NCBI GenBank assembly: GCA_004555545.1
Contig: SFHR01000032.1
Span: forward strand, 16,161 to 40,160
Source: Dechloromonas aromatica (nom. nud.)
GTDB taxonomy: Bacteria; Pseudomonadota; Gammaproteobacteria; Burkholderiales; Rhodocyclaceae
Direction: 5' to 3'
Length of the DNA: 24,000 nucleotides
The notes below the pieces were generated by a model, which saw only the letters and a program-made list of their open reading frames with translations, ran no database searches and was not told the DNA's origin. Positions 3,481-23,692 of this stretch are shown here, in pieces. The stretch's first letter is position 1, and each line of letters opens with the position of its first letter. The position numbers and the translations under genes are program-made.

Positions 3481-3548
3481 TTTTTCCACGAGATTTTGAT
3501 AAAAATTTTTAAAAATTTTTAAAAATTTTTTGCTAATTCTCGTGGAAA
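3481..3548. repeat. CCACGAG palindromic element, full copy 4, with expanded spacer
   Basis: Cores at 3486-3492 and 3539-3545. The spacer holds a perfect (AAAAATTTTT)x3 at 3501-3530. Confidence 0.9.
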
Positions 3549-5920: not shown

Positions 5921-7166
<1,246 letters not shown>

Positions 7167-7185
7167 TTTTGTTGAAAAATTTTAC

Positions 7186-7853: not shown

Positions 7854-7899
7854 TTTTCCACGAGATTTCTAAAAAATTTTTTAGATTTCTCGTGGAAAA
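7854..7899. repeat. CCACGAG palindromic element, full copy 7
   Basis: Cores at 7858-7864 and 7889-7895. In the convergent gap between the Sel1 gene and the gmhA-like gene. Confidence 0.9.
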
Positions 7900-8538: not shown

Positions 8539-8555
8539 TTTTTCCACGAGATTTA
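8539..8555. repeat. CCACGAG element, half copy (left arm only)
   Basis: TTTTTCCACGAGATTT (core 8544-8550). The expected right arm is replaced by tandem arrays. Confidence 0.7.
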
Positions 8556-11186: not shown

Positions 11187-11238
11187 AAAAGATTTTTTCC
11201 TTGTAATAATTATTATCTGTGATTGAATTTATAAATAT

Positions 11239-11299
11239 AAAAATTTTTTAAAAATTTTAAAAATTTTAAAAATTTATAAATTTATAAATTTATAAATTA
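11239..11299. repeat. compound tandem repeat: AAAAATTTT (9 bp) x ~4, then ATAAATTT (8 bp) x3
   Basis: Read directly in the purD/valS divergent region. Confidence 0.85.
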
Positions 11300-11365
11300 A
11301 ATAGTGATGTTTAGTTTAAAAATCGTCAAAAATTGTTAGACGAGAAATTTTAAATGAAAATATTT

Positions 11366-11389: not shown

Positions 11390-11411
11390 ATTAAAAAAAC
11401 TTTTCTAAAAC

Positions 11412-11456
11412 TTTTCCACGAGATTTCCAAAAATTTTTATAGAATTCTCGTGGAAA
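11412..11456. repeat. CCACGAG palindromic element, full copy 8
   Basis: Cores at 11416-11422 and 11447-11453. It lies in a divergent (promoter-side) intergenic region, so it cannot terminate either neighbour. Confidence 0.9.
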
Positions 11457-11506: not shown

Positions 11507-13506
11507 CTCAAAATTATTATGTTAGACAAATCTTATAATCCAGACGATATTGAAAAAAAATATTACTCCTTTTGGGAAAATAACGGCTTTTTTGATGCCG
11601 GTAAAGATTTACAAAAAGCCAAAAATCCAGAACAAAATTTCTGCATTATGCTCCCACCGCCAAATGTCACCGGAACGCTTCATATGGGACACGGCTTCAA
11701 TCAAACGCTGATGGATTCGTTAATTCGCTATCACCGTATGAAAGGCGATAACACGCTTTGGCAGCCCGGCACCGATCACGCTGGAATAGCCACGCAAATT
11801 GTGGTGGAACGTCAGTTGGATGCTCAAAAGATATCTCGGCACGACTTGGGACGCGAAAAATTCGTAGAAAAAGTTTGGAAATGGAAAAAACTTTCCGGAG
11901 GCACGATTACTCAACAAATGCGACGTTTAGGCACTTCTCCGGATTGGAAACGCGAACGCTTCACTATGGACGAAGGACTTTCCAAAGCAGTAGTGGAAAC
12001 GTTTGTGCGTTTATACAATGATGGTTTGATTTATCGCGGCAAAAAATTAGTAAATTGGGATCCAAAATTACAAACGGCAGTATCAGATTTAGAAGTCGTG
12101 CAAAATGAAGAAAATGGCAATTTATGGCATATCCGCTATGATTTGGCTGATAACTCCGGAGATTTCTTGATTGTAGCAACCACGCGTCCGGAAACGTTGT
12201 TCGGAGATACCGCCGTGATGGTGCATCCAGACGACGAGCGTTATCAAAAATATATAGGCAAACAAATCAAATTACCGCTGACAAATCGCACCATTCCGAT
12301 TATTGCCGATGCTTATGTAGATAAAGAATTTGGAACCGGATGCGTAAAAGTTACACCGGCTCACGATTTCAATGACTACGAAGTTGGCAAACGCCATAAT
12401 TTGCCATTGATTTCGGTTTTAACTTTGGAAGCTAAAATGTCCGCCGAACCTGAAGCTTGTGTTCCCGAAAATCTACACGGCTTGGATAGATTAGTCGCCA
12501 GAAAAAAAGTAGTCCAAGAATTACAAAATCTCGGCTTGTTAGTCAAAATTGAAGAGCATAAGCATAAAATTCCACGCGGCGACCGGACCGATGAAATCAT
12601 TGAGCCGATGCTTACAAATCAATGGTTTGTGGCTATGTCTAAACCGACGGCAAAAAATGGAATTTCCATAACGCAACGAGCTTTGGACGCCGTCAAAAAC
12701 GGAGAAGTGAAATTTTTCCCCGAGAATTGGGTAAATATTTATAACCAGTGGCTCAATAATATTCAAGATTGGTGTATTTCTCGTCAGCTTTGGTGGGGAC
12801 ACCAAATTCCAGCGTGGTATGGCGAGGGCGATATTTTAGTAGTCGCTCATAACGAAAATGAAGCCAAACAAATCGCCGCCGAAAAATTTAATTATCACGG
12901 CGAATTAGTTCGCGATAATGATGTTTTAGATACTTGGTTTTCGTCGGCTTTATGGACGTTTTCCACTTTGGATTGGACTGGCGATGAAAATTTAGATTTG
13001 CAAAATCCTATGTTACAGCAATATTTGCCGTCTTCGGTGCTGATGACCGGTTTTGATATTATCTTTTTCTGGGTCGCCAGAATGATCATTATGACTTTGT
13101 ATTTAACCGACAAAGTGCCGTTTAAACACGTTTATGTTCACGGTTTGATACGCGATCAAGATGGTCAGAAAATGTCAAAATCAAAAGGCAATGTGATTGA
13201 TCCGATTGATATCATAGACGGAATTGGTTTGGAAAAACTATTGGAAAAGCGGACTTTTGGTTTGATGAATCCAAAGCAAAAAGATGCGATTATCAAAAAA
13301 ACTAAAAAAGATTTTCCAAATGGATTTACCGCAATTGGCACGGACGCTTTACGTTTTACTTTTTTGAGTTTAGCCTCGCCCGGACGCGATATAAAATATG
13401 ATTTTGCACGTGGAGAAGGTTATAGAAGTTTTTGTAATAAACTTTGGAATGCAACGCGTTTTGTGTTAATGAATATTTCTGATGAAGATAAGCAGAAATT
13501 AAACAA

Positions 13507-13552
13507 TTTCCACGAGAATAATCCAAAAATTTTTGAACAAATCTCGTGGAAA
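13507..13552. repeat. CCACGAG palindromic element, full copy 9, in-frame inside valS
   Basis: TTTCCACGAGAATAATCCAAAAATTTTTGAACAAATCTCGTGGAAA (cores 13510-13516 and 13543-13549), translated as [16 protein letters not shown]. Confidence 0.9.
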
Positions 13553-14099
13553 GAACACTGGATTTTGTCGGCTTTACAAAATACGATAGCCGAAATTCAT
13601 AAAAATTTTGCAAATTATCGTTTTGATTATATAGCCAAAACTTTTTATGAATTTGTTTGGAATGAGTTTTGTGATTGGTATGTAGAAATTGCCAAAACCA
13701 CTCTGAACGAGCAGATCAACGAATCCGAAAAATTAAAAGTGCGTTTTGTGTTAGTTTATGTTTTGGAAAATATTTTGCGTTTGGCACATCCTTTGATTCC
13801 GTTTATCAGCGAAGAGTTATGGCAAAATGTAGCCGAAATTATTAACGCCAAAAAAACGCCATCAATTATGTTGGCAAAATTTCCGGATTTTGACGCTACG
13901 CTGGTGGATTCAAACGCCGAGCAACAAATCTCAAATTTGAAAACTTTGGTTTCGGCAAGTCGTAATTTACGCACGGAAATGCAAATTTCTCCGTCCGTAA
14001 AAACTCCATTGGTGATAGAAATTGCCAAAAATAATTCGCAAAAACTCGTGGAAATTCAGGAATTTATGCCATATTTGAAATCGTTATCAAAATTATCTG

Positions 14100-14346
<247 letters not shown>

Positions 14347-14423
14347 ATAAAATAAATACAAATATTTAATACAAATATTTGATATAAATACAAATACAAA
14401 AATACAAAGAAAGGAACAACCAT

Positions 14424-14871: not shown

Positions 14872-14917
14872 TTTTCCACGAGATTTTCAAAAGATTTTTT
14901 AGATTTCTCGTGGAAAA
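14872..14917. repeat. CCACGAG palindromic element, full copy 10
   Basis: Cores at 14876-14882 and 14907-14913. Lies between flgC and ilvE. Confidence 0.9.
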
Positions 14918-14993: not shown

Positions 14994-15947
14994 ATGGCAA
15001 CTGCAACTGCTCCAACAATGGACGACCGCGATGGCGTTATTTGGTTTAACGGAAAATTAGTAAATTGGCGTGATGTCAAAATTCACGTTTTAACTCATTC
15101 TTTGCATTACGGCTCCAGCGTCTTTGAAGGCGTTCGGGCTTATAAAACCGCAGATAATCGCACGGCAATTTTCCGCTTGAATGATCACACCAAACGCTTG
15201 TTAGATTCCGCAAAAATTATCCAAATGCAAATTCCTTATTCTTTTGACGAGCTCAACAAAGCGCAGTTAGACGTAGTCCGCGAAAATAATTTGGTTGATG
15301 GCTGTTATTTGCGTCCGATTGCTTTTTATGGTTCCGAAAAATTAGGCGTATCTCCAAAAAATTCCAAAGTGCATACTGCGATTGCGGCTTGGTCTTGGGG
15401 AGCATATTTGGGCAAAGAAGCGTTAGAGCGTGGAATTCGCGTAAAAATTTCCAGTTTTAGCCGTTTGCACGTAAACGTTACAATGGTCAAAGCCAAAGCA
15501 TCTGGAAATTATCTAAATTCAATTATGGCAAATAATGAAGTCGTAGATCAAGGTTATGATGAAGCGGTTTTGCTTGACACTGACGGTTATGTAGCCGAAG
15601 GTTCGGGCGAAAATATTTTTATCGTTTCTCGTGGAAAATTATTTACGCCGGATTTGGCGTCGTGCTTGGACGGCATTACGCGTCGCTCTATTATAACTAT
15701 TGCCGAAGAAATGGGCTTGGAAGTAATTTGCAAACGGATAACTCGCGATGAAGTTTATACTGCCGATGAAATGTTTTTCTGTGGAACAGCCGCGGAAATC
15801 ACGCCGATTCGCGAAATTGATAACCGCCAAATCGGAGAAGGCAAACGCGGCGAAATCACTGCAAAATTACAACAACGCTTTTTTGATATAGTTTCCGGCA
15901 AGGAAATCAATAACCCACTTTATAAAGATTGGCTGACGTTTATTTAA
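14994..15947 (+). CDS. ilvE: branched-chain amino acid aminotransferase
   Basis: 317-aa ORF. Class IV aminotransferase motifs (HSLHYGSSVFEGVRAY, KAKASGNYLNS, EGSGENIF, GITR, CGTAAEITPI). Confidence 0.9.
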   Translation: MATATAPTMDDRDGVIWFNGKLVNWRDVKIHVLTHSLHYGSSVFEGVRAYKTADNRTAIFRLNDHTKRLLDSAKIIQMQIPYSFDELNKAQLDVVRENNLVDGCYLRPIAFYGSEKLGVSPKNSKVHTAIAAWSWGAYLGKEALERGIRVKISSFSRLHVNVTMVKAKASGNYLNSIMANNEVVDQGYDEAVLLDTDGYVAEGSGENIFIVSRGKLFTPDLASCLDGITRRSIITIAEEMGLEVICKRITRDEVYTADEMFFCGTAAEITPIREIDNRQIGEGKRGEITAKLQQRFFDIVSGKEINNPLYKDWLTFI

Positions 15948-16236: not shown

Positions 16237-16920
16237 TTATTTTTTATCCTTTTCTTTCTCCTTTTTCTCGCGTTTTTTGGGAACTTTTGGCGGAGCTTTC
16301 GGAAGAATTCTGCCATCTAATTCTGCGGTGATTTTTTCGGATTTTGCCCGTAATGCTTGTTCTTCTTTTTCGGCTCGTCGTGCGGCACGTTCGGCTTTTT
16401 TAGCTTCTTTGGCACGTTTTACTTCTTCGGTCTGAATCTTGAATCTGCCGGTTGGAACCAAATTTTGTAATTGCTCCACCAGCGATAAAACTTTGGGAAC
16501 AATTATATCTTTTTGGTCACGATAATAAATATAACGCTGATTTACTGAATCATCATAATTACGCGTCCGCGTTGGTTTTTCAGGCGATTTAATATTCGTA
16601 TTTTCAGCTTTATTTTCATTGCTTTTTTCTGCAATTTCATCATCATTTTTGACGATTTCGGCATCACTTTTTTTGGCTTTTGGTTTTTTGCTTTCTTTGC
16701 TTTCTTTGTTTTCTTTTACATCTTTTGATTTTTCCACGAGATTTTTACTCTTTTTTTTAGGAGTTGTAGAATTTTTCAAAGATGCGAAAACTTTTTCAGT
16801 GACTTCTTCATCGGTCAAATTTTGATTTTGATTTTGATTTTGATTTTGATTCTGATTTTCATCACTTGACAACTCAAATGATAAAGATAAATGCGAGGAA
16901 GTTTTTTTTATTTTTGGCAT
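16237..16920 (-). CDS. hypothetical Lys/Glu-rich low-complexity protein with an (NQ)6 repeat
   Basis: 227-aa ORF, no signal peptide. (NQ)n, KESKESK, a charged helical segment (EEVKRAKEAKKAERAARRAEKEEQALRAK) and a basic tail. No family recognised. Confidence 0.5.
   Translation of the reverse strand: MPKIKKTSSHLSLSFELSSDENQNQNQNQNQNQNLTDEEVTEKVFASLKNSTTPKKKSKNLVEKSKDVKENKESKESKKPKAKKSDAEIVKNDDEIAEKSNENKAENTNIKSPEKPTRTRNYDDSVNQRYIYYRDQKDIIVPKVLSLVEQLQNLVPTGRFKIQTEEVKRAKEAKKAERAARRAEKEEQALRAKSEKITAELDGRILPKAPPKVPKKREKKEKEKDKK
16819..16860. repeat. 6-bp tandem repeat ATTTTG x7 (coding, gives NQNQNQ...)
   Basis: Read directly inside the 16237-16920 ORF. Confidence 0.9.
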
Positions 16921-18659: not shown

Positions 18660-19952
18660 ATGTCTGCAAACAATTTTTTATCAGAACAAGTTTTCACTAA
18701 AAATAAACATAATTTACATAATTCTAACGCAAATTTTCCACGAGAAATCGCTTTAATTTTGCAGGTTGATTTTGATAGCGACAAAGTTCAAGCCGCTTTA
18801 AAATTACAAGAATTACAATTACTCACAGAATCCGCCGGAGCAGAAGTAGCCGAAAAAATTATCGTAAATCGCAGCGTGGCAAATCCAAAATTTTTCATAG
18901 GTTCTGGCAAAGTTGAGGAAATCAAAATTTTAATCGCTGCCAAAAATATAAATTTGTTAATCGTAAATCACAATTTATCACCGGCTCAAGAACGCAATTT
19001 GGAGCGAGAATTAAAAATTCGCGTGATTGATAGAAATGCTTTAATTTTAGATATTTTTGCTCAACGTGCCGCCACTGCGGACGGGCGTTTGCAAGTAGAA
19101 TTAGCACAATTACAGCATTTATCAACTCGTTTAGTTCGCGGTTGGACGCATTTGGAACGTCAAAAAGGCGGAATCGGCTTACGTGGGCCCGGCGAAAGTC
19201 AGTTGGAAACGGATAGACGTTTGTTAAATCAGCGAATTATATTTTTGAAACAAAAATTAGCCAAATTATCAAAACAACGGAGAACGCAGAATTTTTCCAG
19301 ATTTGATAGCAATAAAAATTTTGCAATTTTAAATGTTGCATTTATCGGCTACACAAATACCGGAAAATCAACGCTTTTCAACGCTCTGACGAAAGCGAAT
19401 GTTTATTCGGCAAATCAATTATTTGCCACACTTGATACAACGGCTCGGCGTTTATGGTTGGCAGATTCGCAAAGTCAGGCAATTGTTGCTGATACAGTTG
19501 GTTTTATACGTGATTTGCCACATAGTTTGATTAACGCATTCCACGCCACTTTGGAGGCAACTTGTTATGCAGATGTTTTGTTGCACGTGATAGATTTTTC
19601 TTCAGCAATGAAAGATGCAGAAATCAAAGCGGTCAATGAAGTTTTACAAGAAATAAATAATGATATTGGCAGTCAAATTCCGCCACAGATTTTGGTTTTC
19701 AACAAAATAGATTTGGCGATAAGCAATGAAAGAGATTTGCAAGAAAAGTTGTCACAGAATTTTGAAAATATTCAAAACGTAAATTTAGACGCTTTGGATC
19801 CGTTAATTCCAAACGTTTATGTGAGTGCTAAACAAAAATTAGGGTTAGAAAATCTGAAATTATTGTTAGCAAAATTTGCCTTACAGAAAATGCGTAAAAA
19901 TAATAAAAATTCAGAAAATGATGAAAATGCAGATTTTCCACGAGAAATCTAA
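18660..19952 (+). CDS. hflX: GTPase HflX
   Basis: 430-aa ORF with the HflX N-terminal domain (FAQRAATADGRLQVELAQLQH, GPGESQLETDRR). G1 GYTNTGKST, G3 DTVGF, G4 NKID. Confidence 0.9.
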   Translation: MSANNFLSEQVFTKNKHNLHNSNANFPREIALILQVDFDSDKVQAALKLQELQLLTESAGAEVAEKIIVNRSVANPKFFIGSGKVEEIKILIAAKNINLLIVNHNLSPAQERNLERELKIRVIDRNALILDIFAQRAATADGRLQVELAQLQHLSTRLVRGWTHLERQKGGIGLRGPGESQLETDRRLLNQRIIFLKQKLAKLSKQRRTQNFSRFDSNKNFAILNVAFIGYTNTGKSTLFNALTKANVYSANQLFATLDTTARRLWLADSQSQAIVADTVGFIRDLPHSLINAFHATLEATCYADVLLHVIDFSSAMKDAEIKAVNEVLQEINNDIGSQIPPQILVFNKIDLAISNERDLQEKLSQNFENIQNVNLDALDPLIPNVYVSAKQKLGLENLKLLLAKFALQKMRKNNKNSENDENADFPREI

Positions 19953-19980
19953 AAATTTTTTTGAAAATCTCGTGGAAAAA
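19934..19980. repeat. CCACGAG palindromic element, full copy 12, containing the hflX stop codon
   Basis: Cores at 19938-19944 and 19969-19975. The hflX frame reads the left arm as FPREI, then TAA. Confidence 0.9.
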
Positions 19981-20056
19981 ATTTAAAAATTTAAAAATTT
20001 AAAAATTTAAGAATTTAAAAAATTTTTAAAAATTTTTAAAAATTTTTAAAAATTTG
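19976..20056. repeat. compound tandem repeat: AAAAATTT (8 bp) x5, then AAAAATTTTT (10 bp) x3
   Basis: Read directly; abuts the -35 of the tRNA-Phe promoter, in a UP-element-like position. Confidence 0.85.
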
Positions 20057-20057
20057 C

Positions 20058-20085
20058 TTGACATTTATTTTTTTTAATGTATAAT
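20058..20085 (+). promoter_or_regulatory. consensus sigma70 promoter for tRNA-Phe
   Basis: TTGACA (20058-20063), 16-bp spacer, TATAAT (20080-20085) preceded by TG. The tRNA starts at 20103. Confidence 0.65.
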
Positions 20086-20850: not shown

Positions 20851-21537
20851 ATGAGTATAAGTGTAGCAAAAAATTTAGCATTGTTTGATTTAGATAATAC
20901 TTTATTATCATCAGATTCAGATTACTTATGGGGCGAATTTGCTTGTGAAAATAATATAGTTAATGCAACAGAATTCCGCAAAAAAAATAATGAATATATG
21001 CAACAATATCGGCAAGGAGTTTTGGATGCCGATGAGTTTGTGGCATTTCAGTTAAATGTTTTGACAAAATTTCCACGAGAAACCTTAAATAATTTTTATA
21101 AAGAATACTTTGATAACAAAATCAAACCGGTTATATTACCAAAAGGAATTGATTTGGTTCAGCGGCATTTACAAAATGGCGATTTGTGTGCGTTAGTTAG
21201 TGCAACAAATACTTTTATTACTGCTCCGATTGCCCGTTATTTTAAAATACCTTATTTGATTTGCACTACTGCCGAACAAAATATGGAAAACGGAAATTAT
21301 ACCGGCGAATGTATAGGTAAAAAATCATTTAGAGAAGGCAAAATTTTTCGCGTAGAACAATTTTTACAAAACTACGGATTATTTTGGGGAAGTTTTGAAA
21401 AAACATACTTTTATAGCGATTCATTTAATGATTTGCCATTGTTAAATAAAGTATCAAATCCAGTAGCAGTTAATCCAGATGCAAAACTATTAGAAGCGGC
21501 TCAAAAAAATAATTGGACTATTTTAGATTTGCGTTAA
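20851..21537 (+). CDS. HAD-IB family hydrolase (SerB-like phosphatase family)
   Basis: 228 aa. Motif I FDLDNTLL, motif II VSATN, and a C-terminal YSDSFNDLPLL aspartate motif. Confidence 0.8.
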   Translation: MSISVAKNLALFDLDNTLLSSDSDYLWGEFACENNIVNATEFRKKNNEYMQQYRQGVLDADEFVAFQLNVLTKFPRETLNNFYKEYFDNKIKPVILPKGIDLVQRHLQNGDLCALVSATNTFITAPIARYFKIPYLICTTAEQNMENGNYTGECIGKKSFREGKIFRVEQFLQNYGLFWGSFEKTYFYSDSFNDLPLLNKVSNPVAVNPDAKLLEAAQKNNWTILDLR

Positions 21538-23645: not shown

Positions 23646-23692
23646 TTTTCCACGAGATTTCCAAAAAATTTTTTAGATTTCTCGTGGAAAAA
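23646..23692. repeat. CCACGAG palindromic element, full copy 13
   Basis: Cores at 23650-23656 and 23681-23687. Lies between the TonB-like gene stop and the prepilin gene. Confidence 0.9.

Follow-up and report, generated by a model that had tools for sequence, protein, structure and literature searches.

The window analysed here, a 24,000-nucleotide (nt) stretch of contig SFHR01000032.1, contains a complete palindromic element that lies in frame within valS, the gene for valyl-tRNA synthetase (ValRS). The open reading frame (ORF) at 11519–14131 on the forward strand was identified as ValRS with phmmer against the T. thermophilus enzyme (1GAX, E=4e-193). Two Pfam domains were found in its product, tRNA-synt_1 at residues 15–627 and Anticodon_1 at residues 680–831, and the element is located between them. 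The gene and the parts of the element are listed below.

11519–14131, forward strand: valS ORF; 870 aa in the window, 957–964 aa in close relatives
13507–13552, forward strand: complete palindromic element in valS; in-frame codons 663–678; kept in assemblies L081, L082, L186 and L203
13507–13517, forward strand: left arm TTTCCACGAGA, encoding (N)FHE, with the rare codons TTC and GAG
13525–13534, forward strand: centre AAAAATTTTT, the hallmark of the repeat family
13542–13552, forward strand: right arm TCTCGTGGAAA, encoding (I)SWK, with a TCG codon at the nearly invariant Ser676 of ValRS

The palindrome within valS

The element comprises 46 bases in the order TTTCCACGAGA-ATAATCC-AAAAATTTTT-GAACAAA-TCTCGTGGAAA, with the arms separated by N24. 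The perfect arms are 11 bp long and the next outer pair is A/G, so the 12-bp stem claimed in the sequence-only reading is one pair too long. The remainder of that description was accurate: a full copy with both cores perfect and the AAAAATTTTT centre is seen in frame in valS, and codons 663–678 (13505–13552), which encode 16 residues and are followed by HWILSAL, contain neither a stop nor a frameshift.

The element was found at identical codons in four independent assemblies (L082, L186, L203 and L081) and therefore is not an assembly artefact. It likewise occupied this position, in identical or near-identical form, in each of the 14 cluster members. The in-frame palindrome in valS was confirmed as real. 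Close relatives of this valS fall into a cluster at 99% identity, a lineage at 94% (L203) and a sister species at 92% (L081), with the palindrome in all of them, and the next ValRS relatives, from Rhodocyclales (66–67% identity), are repeat-free. When GTDB genomes were scanned with the ValRS, the best relative was 61% identical and a close repeat-free genome was not found. As judged from sequence, the host is an uncultured low-GC betaproteobacterium whose ValRS is nearest to that of Rhodocyclales.

The nucleotides of the element changed differently from those of the gene around it. Between the window and L081, synonymous differences were observed in 28.4% of identical-amino-acid codons gene-wide and in 0 of 14 within the element (P=0.009), while amino-acid changes reached 2 of 16 in the element compared to 7.5% gene-wide. 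Comparable results were obtained with L203, yielding 20.6% gene-wide and 0 of 13 in the element (P=0.05) for synonymous differences, and 5% and 3 of 16, respectively, for amino-acid changes. In L203, 13 differences were located in the 30 nt upstream of the element, and the left arm and centre were identical. The arms use rare codons (TTC 20%, GAG 12%, TCG 12%) that are kept in all three lineages, which points to a constraint on the DNA or RNA word rather than on the peptide. Nucleotide-level constraint within an essential gene is therefore suggestive, with P of about 0.01–0.05 per lineage, and weaker at the local rate.

The site had been described as a length-variable linker directly before the anticodon-binding domain, which agrees with the position between the two Pfam domains and with a loop of 16–53 aa across 191 ValRS sequences, hypervariable in both length and sequence. 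Measured between NATRFVL and [DE]xWI, the loop was 28 aa long in the window, compared to a median of 30 aa (range 18–35) in the nearest relatives and 21 aa (range 16–53) in 74 other beta- and gamma-proteobacteria. The suggestion that the segment is several residues longer than in E. coli stands in so far as the loop exceeds the 20–21 residues typical of beta- and gamma-proteobacteria by 7–8 (21 in an Enterobacteriaceae metagenome-assembled genome), and fails with respect to the nearest relatives. In the HMMER alignment to 1GAX, the element segment matched a shorter loop with 12 fewer residues. A net lineage-specific insertion of 15 codons was not demonstrable by alignment of ValRS sequences, because the nearest repeat-free relatives (66–67% identity) have an equally long loop. 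A fair statement is that the element occupies the hypervariable core of this indel-prone loop and appears to have replaced it.

A structure model agreed with this placement in part. The AlphaFold2 model was poor overall, with a mean predicted local distance difference test (pLDDT) score of 60.7 and values below 50 in the catalytic core, and only the anticodon-binding region was usable. There, pLDDT reached 81–97 for residues 641–690 and 81–92 in the element segment, where model confidence for the element's own residues rests on three sequences only. Two long helices were modelled (629–651 and 677–698), joined by short helical turns and loops at residues 652–676.

In the mRNA, the valS copy forms a hairpin of −16.8 kcal/mol with a 6×6 internal loop, the weakest among the copies in the window, and in the sister species (L081) an arm substitution lowers its stability to −12.8 kcal/mol. 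The sense-strand tail after the stem, GAACACTGG, contains no T-tract, whereas the antisense tail, TTGTTTAATTT, is T-rich. In both tail and stem strength, the valS copy departs from an intrinsic terminator. Because its hairpin is the weakest and has no T-tract on the sense strand, internal termination in valS is unlikely, and the proposed role as an attenuator or RNase site found no support. An effect on antisense transcripts is conceivable, as the T-rich tail lies on that strand.

Compared to L082, L186 and L203, valS of the window lacks 71 nt out of frame, a deletion found in no other assembly. The codons lost correspond to DNLESSQDDALAPISVVDGGLRLM; the junction lies at about 14109–14118, where two BLAST alignments overlap by 10 nt, and the codons of the C-terminal coiled coil run on beyond it in a different frame to about 14330. 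The deletion accounts for the truncation to 870 aa, the 14 of 14 other cluster members examined being 960–964 aa long. It represents either an assembly error or a strain-specific truncation.

The repeat family and its copies in other genes

The valS palindrome belongs to a very abundant repeat family. The 10-mer core TTCCACGAGA occurred 30 times without mismatch in the 24 kb, against about one occurrence expected (one-mismatch matches included), and 12 inverted pairs of 44–66 bp were present in the window. A two-arm scan of metagenome contigs returned 120 loci, about 110 of which lay on low-GC contigs of this lineage (mean approximately 36% GC) that came almost entirely from a single co-assembly. 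Approximately 200 perfect pairs were counted in about 420–500 kb of same-lineage contigs, corresponding to a density of about 0.45 elements/kb and 1.25 cores/kb (525 perfect cores in 422 kb), with a unit length of 42–46 bp and 75% of the cores paired. Core-to-core spacing of perfect pairs was mostly 41–43 bp, with minor modes at 54 and 64 bp. A spacing of 44 bp was observed, among the copies of the family, only for the valS copy, which fits a later adjustment to the reading frame.

The consensus of the family is aaaaaatTTTCCACGAGAwwTyyCAAAAA(n)TTTTTGrrAwwTCTCGTGGAAAatttttt, with an A-rich left flank and a right flank that is T-rich after 1–4 A. Cores with zero, one and two mismatches numbered 525, 59 and 275, compared to 0.5, 15 and 217 for permuted cores. 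Partner arms were either perfect or absent, with nothing between. The excess of perfect cores, together with these all-or-none partner arms, indicates that the arms are conserved as a word and not merely as a stem. One asymmetric sequence of 43 bp was identical at 23 of 197 copies, and this shared asymmetric interior suggests that a master copy was duplicated and spread.

The inner stem was also examined for compensatory covariation, and the opposite was observed: positions 11–12 were systematically mismatched (AA/AA or TT/TT), with Watson–Crick pairs in 8–15 of 71 cases against 34–36 expected. Covariation is therefore unusable as evidence for a selected hairpin. Throughout the family, the two bases just inside each arm are non-complementary (for example 1262–1263 and 1283–1284 in the window). 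Each element can also be described as an A5T5 centre of the bent-DNA type, enclosed by two direct GAGAwwTCTC boxes with a spacing of about 21 bp. Where elements lay between tandem genes, the AA orientation with respect to transcription was preferred (40 versus 18).

It was evident that the phenomenon is more general than the valS copy alone, as the repeat entered many coding genes in frame. Intact in-frame copies were found in RNase E (rne, in the disordered C-terminal half, ISTRNAENFSENLVE), HemA (dimerisation domain, FHENSEKIYENLVE), RnfC (N-terminal domain, FHEISKKIFDFLVE) and a tetratricopeptide repeat (TPR) protein (FHEKSKKFFKNLVE). Length insertions were clear for several genic copies, namely those in hemA and rnfC and a second copy in valS; the latter falls on 6 inserted residues that are specific to the lineage and absent from all other aligned ValRS sequences (columns 861–870).

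Of 370 called genes, 71 (19%) contained a perfect core, in most cases as part of a half-decayed copy in frame; in the window this applied to 6 of 21 genes. Single cores numbered 132 in total, 72 of them genic, and 37 of these 72 read xLVE on the coding strand. Ordinary codon usage does not account for the LVE cores, since CTC makes up only 4% of Leu codons. The genic single cores retain the interior of the element and the T5 run without the second arm, and for this reason they look like half-decayed in-frame copies. A few cores lie inside sequence motifs with no added length, as in KMSKSRG of MetRS (L152:2675) and SRGKLFTP of an aminotransferase (window position 15627); these probably arose in place by codon choice and not by insertion. 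The additional genic copies and cores of the window were as follows.

6121–6176, reverse strand: near-complete in-frame copy in obg, in the C-terminal region after the GTPase domain; one arm perfect, the other with 2 mismatches
14024–14056, forward strand: second valS copy, half-decayed, in frame; core ACTCGTGGAA with 1 mismatch; encodes 10 residues
15627–15636, reverse strand: single perfect core in a class IV aminotransferase gene; SRGK within IVSRGKLFTP, which we take to be a conserved aminotransferase motif
16732–16741, forward strand: single core, half copy, in a 227-aa gene of no assigned function; KNLVEK on the coding strand
18736–18745, forward strand: single core at codon 25 of hflX; NFPRE
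21071–21080, forward strand: single core in a HAD hydrolase gene; KFPRE

Placement relative to genes was determined from crude gene calls (88% coding). The median distance from the preceding stop codon was 25 nt, and 104 of 156 elements lay within 0–30 nt. An element was held by 35 of 46 convergent gaps, and a further 92 and 16 were located in tandem and divergent gaps, respectively. The default site of the family is 10–35 nt 3' of stop codons. Intergenic copies of the window folded at −17.2 to −26 kcal/mol. With their position after stop codons, the hairpin and the flanking A- and T-tracts, they are built like an intrinsic terminator acting in both directions or like a 3'-end hairpin, a putative function suggested by this anatomy. 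Conventional terminator-like hairpins, as detected by a simple scan, numbered 16 in the window against 22 expected, nearly all within genes. The following copies were located at gene ends or between genes.

229–273: intergenic copy, 29 nt after a tRNA gene
1251–1295: intergenic copy after bamD, commonest subfamily; interior identical at 23 loci
2396–2439: copy filling the holA–miaA convergent gap, 3 nt and 8 nt from the two stop codons
3483–3548: long variant of 66 bp with three A5T5 units, after a sigma-54 response-regulator gene
7111–7167: 57-bp variant after a helix-turn-helix (HTH) gene
7855–7898: copy in a convergent intergenic gap
8542–8551, forward strand: intergenic single core without a second arm
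11413–11456: copy in the divergent gap upstream of valS, identical in the sister species; synteny break at its left edge
14873–14916: copy after flgB, 30 nt past the stop codon
16166–16210: copy in a convergent gap; the palindrome reaches into the A/T flanks, giving arms of 32 nt
19935–19978: copy over the last codons and stop of hflX
23647–23690: intergenic copy

The longer variants (3483–3548 and 7111–7167) are lengthened by extra 10–11-bp AAAAATTTTT units. Phased A5T5-type AT tracts also stand alone in intergenic DNA (19991–20084 and 11222–11302). The gap between valS and flgB is occupied by AT-rich low-complexity repeats (aaactaaactaaactaaaataaaataaatacaaata...) at 14318–14420 and, unusually, contains no palindromic element. 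Upstream of valS, homology between the window and L081 (2022–2035) begins at, or a few bases from, the left edge of the element (11400–11413), and to the left of it the window and the sister species carry different genes. As homology starts at this edge, the elements may be marks of rearrangement breakpoints.

Origin of the valS copy

The palindrome in valS is best read as a genuine copy of the hyper-abundant repeat of this lineage, spread by copy-and-paste and tolerated in a protein loop, and a probability of about 0.6 is assigned to this reading. The family would multiply by copy-and-paste, and a sequence-specific force, exerted through recognition by a putative protein, would keep the 10–11-bp arms letter-perfect. 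Copies would occasionally land in, or overwrite, permissive coding parts, and those keeping the frame in tolerant loops would survive and be translated. In valS, the event would predate the split of the three sampled lineages. It would have taken place in the hypervariable loop that joins helices one and two of the anticodon-binding region, where the copy would have replaced loop residues rather than simply added 15 codons. The approximately 16 encoded residues would represent a tolerated passenger and not a functional module of ValRS. The copy is probably non-terminating, with no T-tract and a weakened stem, and the force that preserves every other copy, rather than selection on the peptide, would keep its nucleotides constant.

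Several observations weigh against this reading. No empty valS allele was present in the data, so that insertion is inferred and not seen, and the right arm encodes Ser at the nearly invariant position 676, which could reflect a partial in-situ origin. The cores in the MetRS and aminotransferase motifs, without added length, are not explained by a pure insertion model. No target-site duplication was seen, apart from a possible duplication of an AT dinucleotide, the flanks being inverted-symmetric. For HUH transposases, tblastn searches with approximate query sequences of RAYT and IS608 TnpA gave no significant match in the roughly 0.5 Mb sampled, which covers only part of the genome. All-against-all BLAST of 123 barely overlapping contigs revealed no presence/absence polymorphism, the only difference being the 71-nt deletion in valS. 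At the local synonymous rate of about 19%, P for the frozen codons weakens to approximately 0.05–0.065 per lineage, and the AT-rich codons preferred here change slowly in any case. Finally, the simple terminator scan of the window picked up none of the hairpins of the family.

The core could instead be a DNA uptake signal, comparable to the uptake signal sequence (USS) of Haemophilus or the DNA uptake sequence (DUS) of Neisseria, or another driven motif. Two inverted motifs would then have been gathered in the tolerant loop by biased uptake and recombination, largely in situ and with no transposition, and inverted pairs elsewhere would double as terminators, as in Haemophilus and Neisseria. 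This origin of the valS palindrome is considered unlikely, and several observations fit it. Cores reach 1.25/kb, and perfect cores far outnumber mismatched ones, including singles unable to form a hairpin. The 72 genic single cores are strongly biased in orientation and frame (37 of 72 xLVE), as known uptake sequences are (PMC2346458). Some cores lie in sequence motifs with no length added, an extended AT-tract adjoins the core, inverted pairs stand at gene ends, synonymous sites are frozen in the valS copy, and the valS loop is no longer than in the nearest relatives. In contrast, 75% of the cores are paired, and the whole unit of about 44 bp, including its asymmetric interior, is identical at 23 loci. 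Genic singles keep the interior of the element and resemble truncated elements, added length is clear for several copies within genes (the second one in valS and those in hemA and rnfC), and ValRS similarity places the lineage outside Neisseriaceae and Pasteurellaceae. Among the genes of the 24-kb window, no competence genes were found. Overall, duplicative mobility of a tiny hairpin element was rated more likely than uptake-signal drive as the origin of the valS copy. Mobility is favoured by the identical asymmetric copies, the genic length insertions and the truncated-element look of the singles, whereas a drive of the uptake-signal type is favoured by core density, the perfect-core excess, the frame and orientation bias, the cores in motifs and the frozen synonymous sites.

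A role of the valS hairpin as a functional internal mRNA signal (attenuator, RNase site or translational pause) is improbable. The hairpin was significantly stable compared to shuffled sequences (z=−5.0), its arms and centre were conserved at synonymous sites in three lineages, and the antisense hairpin followed by TTGTTTAATTT could stop antisense transcripts. However, the sense stem has no T-tract, the hairpin is the weakest of the window and is further weakened in the sister species, to −12.8 kcal/mol, and conservation is equal in hundreds of unrelated copies and in single arms incapable of forming a hairpin, so that no RNA role specific to valS is needed. It is very improbable that the 16 encoded residues form an adaptive module of ValRS, for example a new contact to tRNA or a partner, with palindromy incidental and selection acting at the protein level. 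The segment directly follows a helix of ValRS that we take to contribute to anticodon recognition in the T. thermophilus ValRS–tRNA structure, and it was modelled at pLDDT 81–92 with short helical turns, a confidence derived from three sequences only. Its amino acids, however, change faster than those of the gene (12–19% compared to 5–7.5%) while synonymous sites are unchanged, which is the opposite of protein-level selection, and the loop is hypervariable in length and sequence. Virtually no weight is given to an assembly or sequencing artefact such as a repeat-induced chimera: the 71-nt out-of-frame deletion downstream, seen in no other assembly, is suspicious, but four independent assemblies of different samples, as well as all 14 cluster members, carry the element at the identical position.

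Known repeat systems and wider meaning

No Rfam family matched the element when the window was searched, the only matches being two tRNAs. A scan of IMG/VR for the palindrome gave no match, and a literature search by core sequence returned only unrelated primer or oligonucleotide matches.

Rickettsia palindromic elements (RPEs) are approximately 100–150 bp long and occur in Rickettsia. They are palindromic, are found both between genes and in frame in unrelated housekeeping genes, are translated in tolerant surface-type regions, and have no known transposase (PMC10969869). The present family resembles them in that in-frame translated copies recur in valS, rne, hemA, rnfC, the TPR gene and obg. 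It differs in its length of 44–46 bp (about 15 codons) and in its host, an uncultured low-GC betaproteobacterium; it is set apart by these two features and not by comparison with the RPE consensus. Its default form is terminator-like, its arms are letter-perfect over hundreds of copies, and genic half copies are very common. The analogy to RPEs drawn in the sequence-only reading is therefore apt as a description of behaviour, but not as an assignment to that family, given the lengths of 44–46 versus 100–150 bp, the other host and the terminator-like intergenic default.

The element likewise shares features with dispersed small repeats and with uptake sequences. Haemophilus USS and Neisseria DUS are motifs of 9–12 bp at about one per kb, with perfect copies far in excess of near-copies and with inverted pairs that form terminators after genes. 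The core of the present family is similar in density (1.25/kb) and in its 525 perfect versus 59 one-mismatch occurrences (15 expected by chance), and its inverted pairs also follow genes as putative terminators (median 25 nt past the stop codon; 35 of 46 convergent gaps). In contrast, its cores are mostly paired within a conserved unit of about 44 bp, with identical units at 23 loci, many of the copies in genes add length, and the host lies outside the two known families. REP sequences and REPINs, mobilised by RAYT, are short and very abundant imperfect palindromes, mostly extragenic near gene 3' ends, with a GTAG-type head and, as REPINs, a REP doublet. The element is similarly short, abundant and close to gene 3' ends, and its sequence-specific conservation would imply recognition by a protein. 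Its consensus, however, begins with TTTCCACGAGA and has no GTAG, it forms a single hairpin rather than a REP doublet, and genic copies are frequent. Within genes, uptake sequences show orientation and frame bias and occupy less constrained parts of proteins (PMC2346458). SPRITE of Streptococcus pneumoniae is a dispersed repeat whose hairpin and T-rich tail resemble a Rho-independent terminator (PMC10969869). Compared to SPRITE and similar small repeats of the miniature inverted-repeat transposable element (MITE) type, the element is also dispersed and terminator-like in its hairpin and T-rich tail; it is shorter, with perfect 11-bp arms, an A5T5 centre and frequent in-frame invasion of coding sequence. 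It has terminal inverted repeats as MITEs do (11 bp, perfect), but no detectable target-site duplication. RPEs are the closest system by behaviour, and terminator-forming pairs of uptake sequences and SPRITE-like small repeats are the closest by anatomy.

A different in-frame palindrome of about 102 bp was observed in several genes of a distantly related groundwater bacterium from the Hainich wells (GC 42–45%, ValRS 34% identical to that of the window). It has the form GGAACAGTCTCG...TTTCCACGAGAC-N20-GTCTCGTGGAAA...CGAGACTGTTCC, spans 34 codons reading EQSRNEADTFPRDLAARGDSSRGKVVGEVGETV, and is carried by LepA, LeuRS, ValRS and two further ORFs. In both synthetases it occupies the same loop, after the NKLWN..RF.L helix, and its inner arms are identical to the 11-bp arms of the valS-type family. 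Its loci were as follows.

L178:3350–3393, L140:8636–8679 and L146:4284–4327: Hainich palindrome
L165, L096, L202, L179 and L166: further loci of the Hainich palindrome

As the Hainich bacterium has a different in-frame palindrome at the same ValRS loop, protein loops of this kind may be a common landing pad for such DNA. A tentative possibility is that a sequence-specific system of uncultured bacteria, hitherto undescribed, recognises TTTCCACGAGA as its word; this could be a third independent DNA-uptake-signal system or a very small hairpin element of a new type with an enzyme of its own. If so, inverted pairs of the word would supply the terminators of the genome, and the drive would override codon choice and write itself in frame into about one fifth of the genes, essential ones included. 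The arms shared with the Hainich palindrome would then reflect common recognition machinery and not coincidence.

In practice, the family puts gene calling, terminator prediction and assembly of these genomes at risk of error. It also offers a clean test case for transposition versus uptake-signal-type drive. In-frame selfish palindromes in housekeeping proteins are textbook knowledge only for Rickettsia, and the repeat described here, which is much shorter and terminator-like, behaves likewise in a free-standing betaproteobacterial lineage and at a larger scale. In the valS copy, synonymous sites are frozen, the arms use rare codons and amino acids change faster, a combination that is suggestive of a nucleotide-level force acting within an essential gene.

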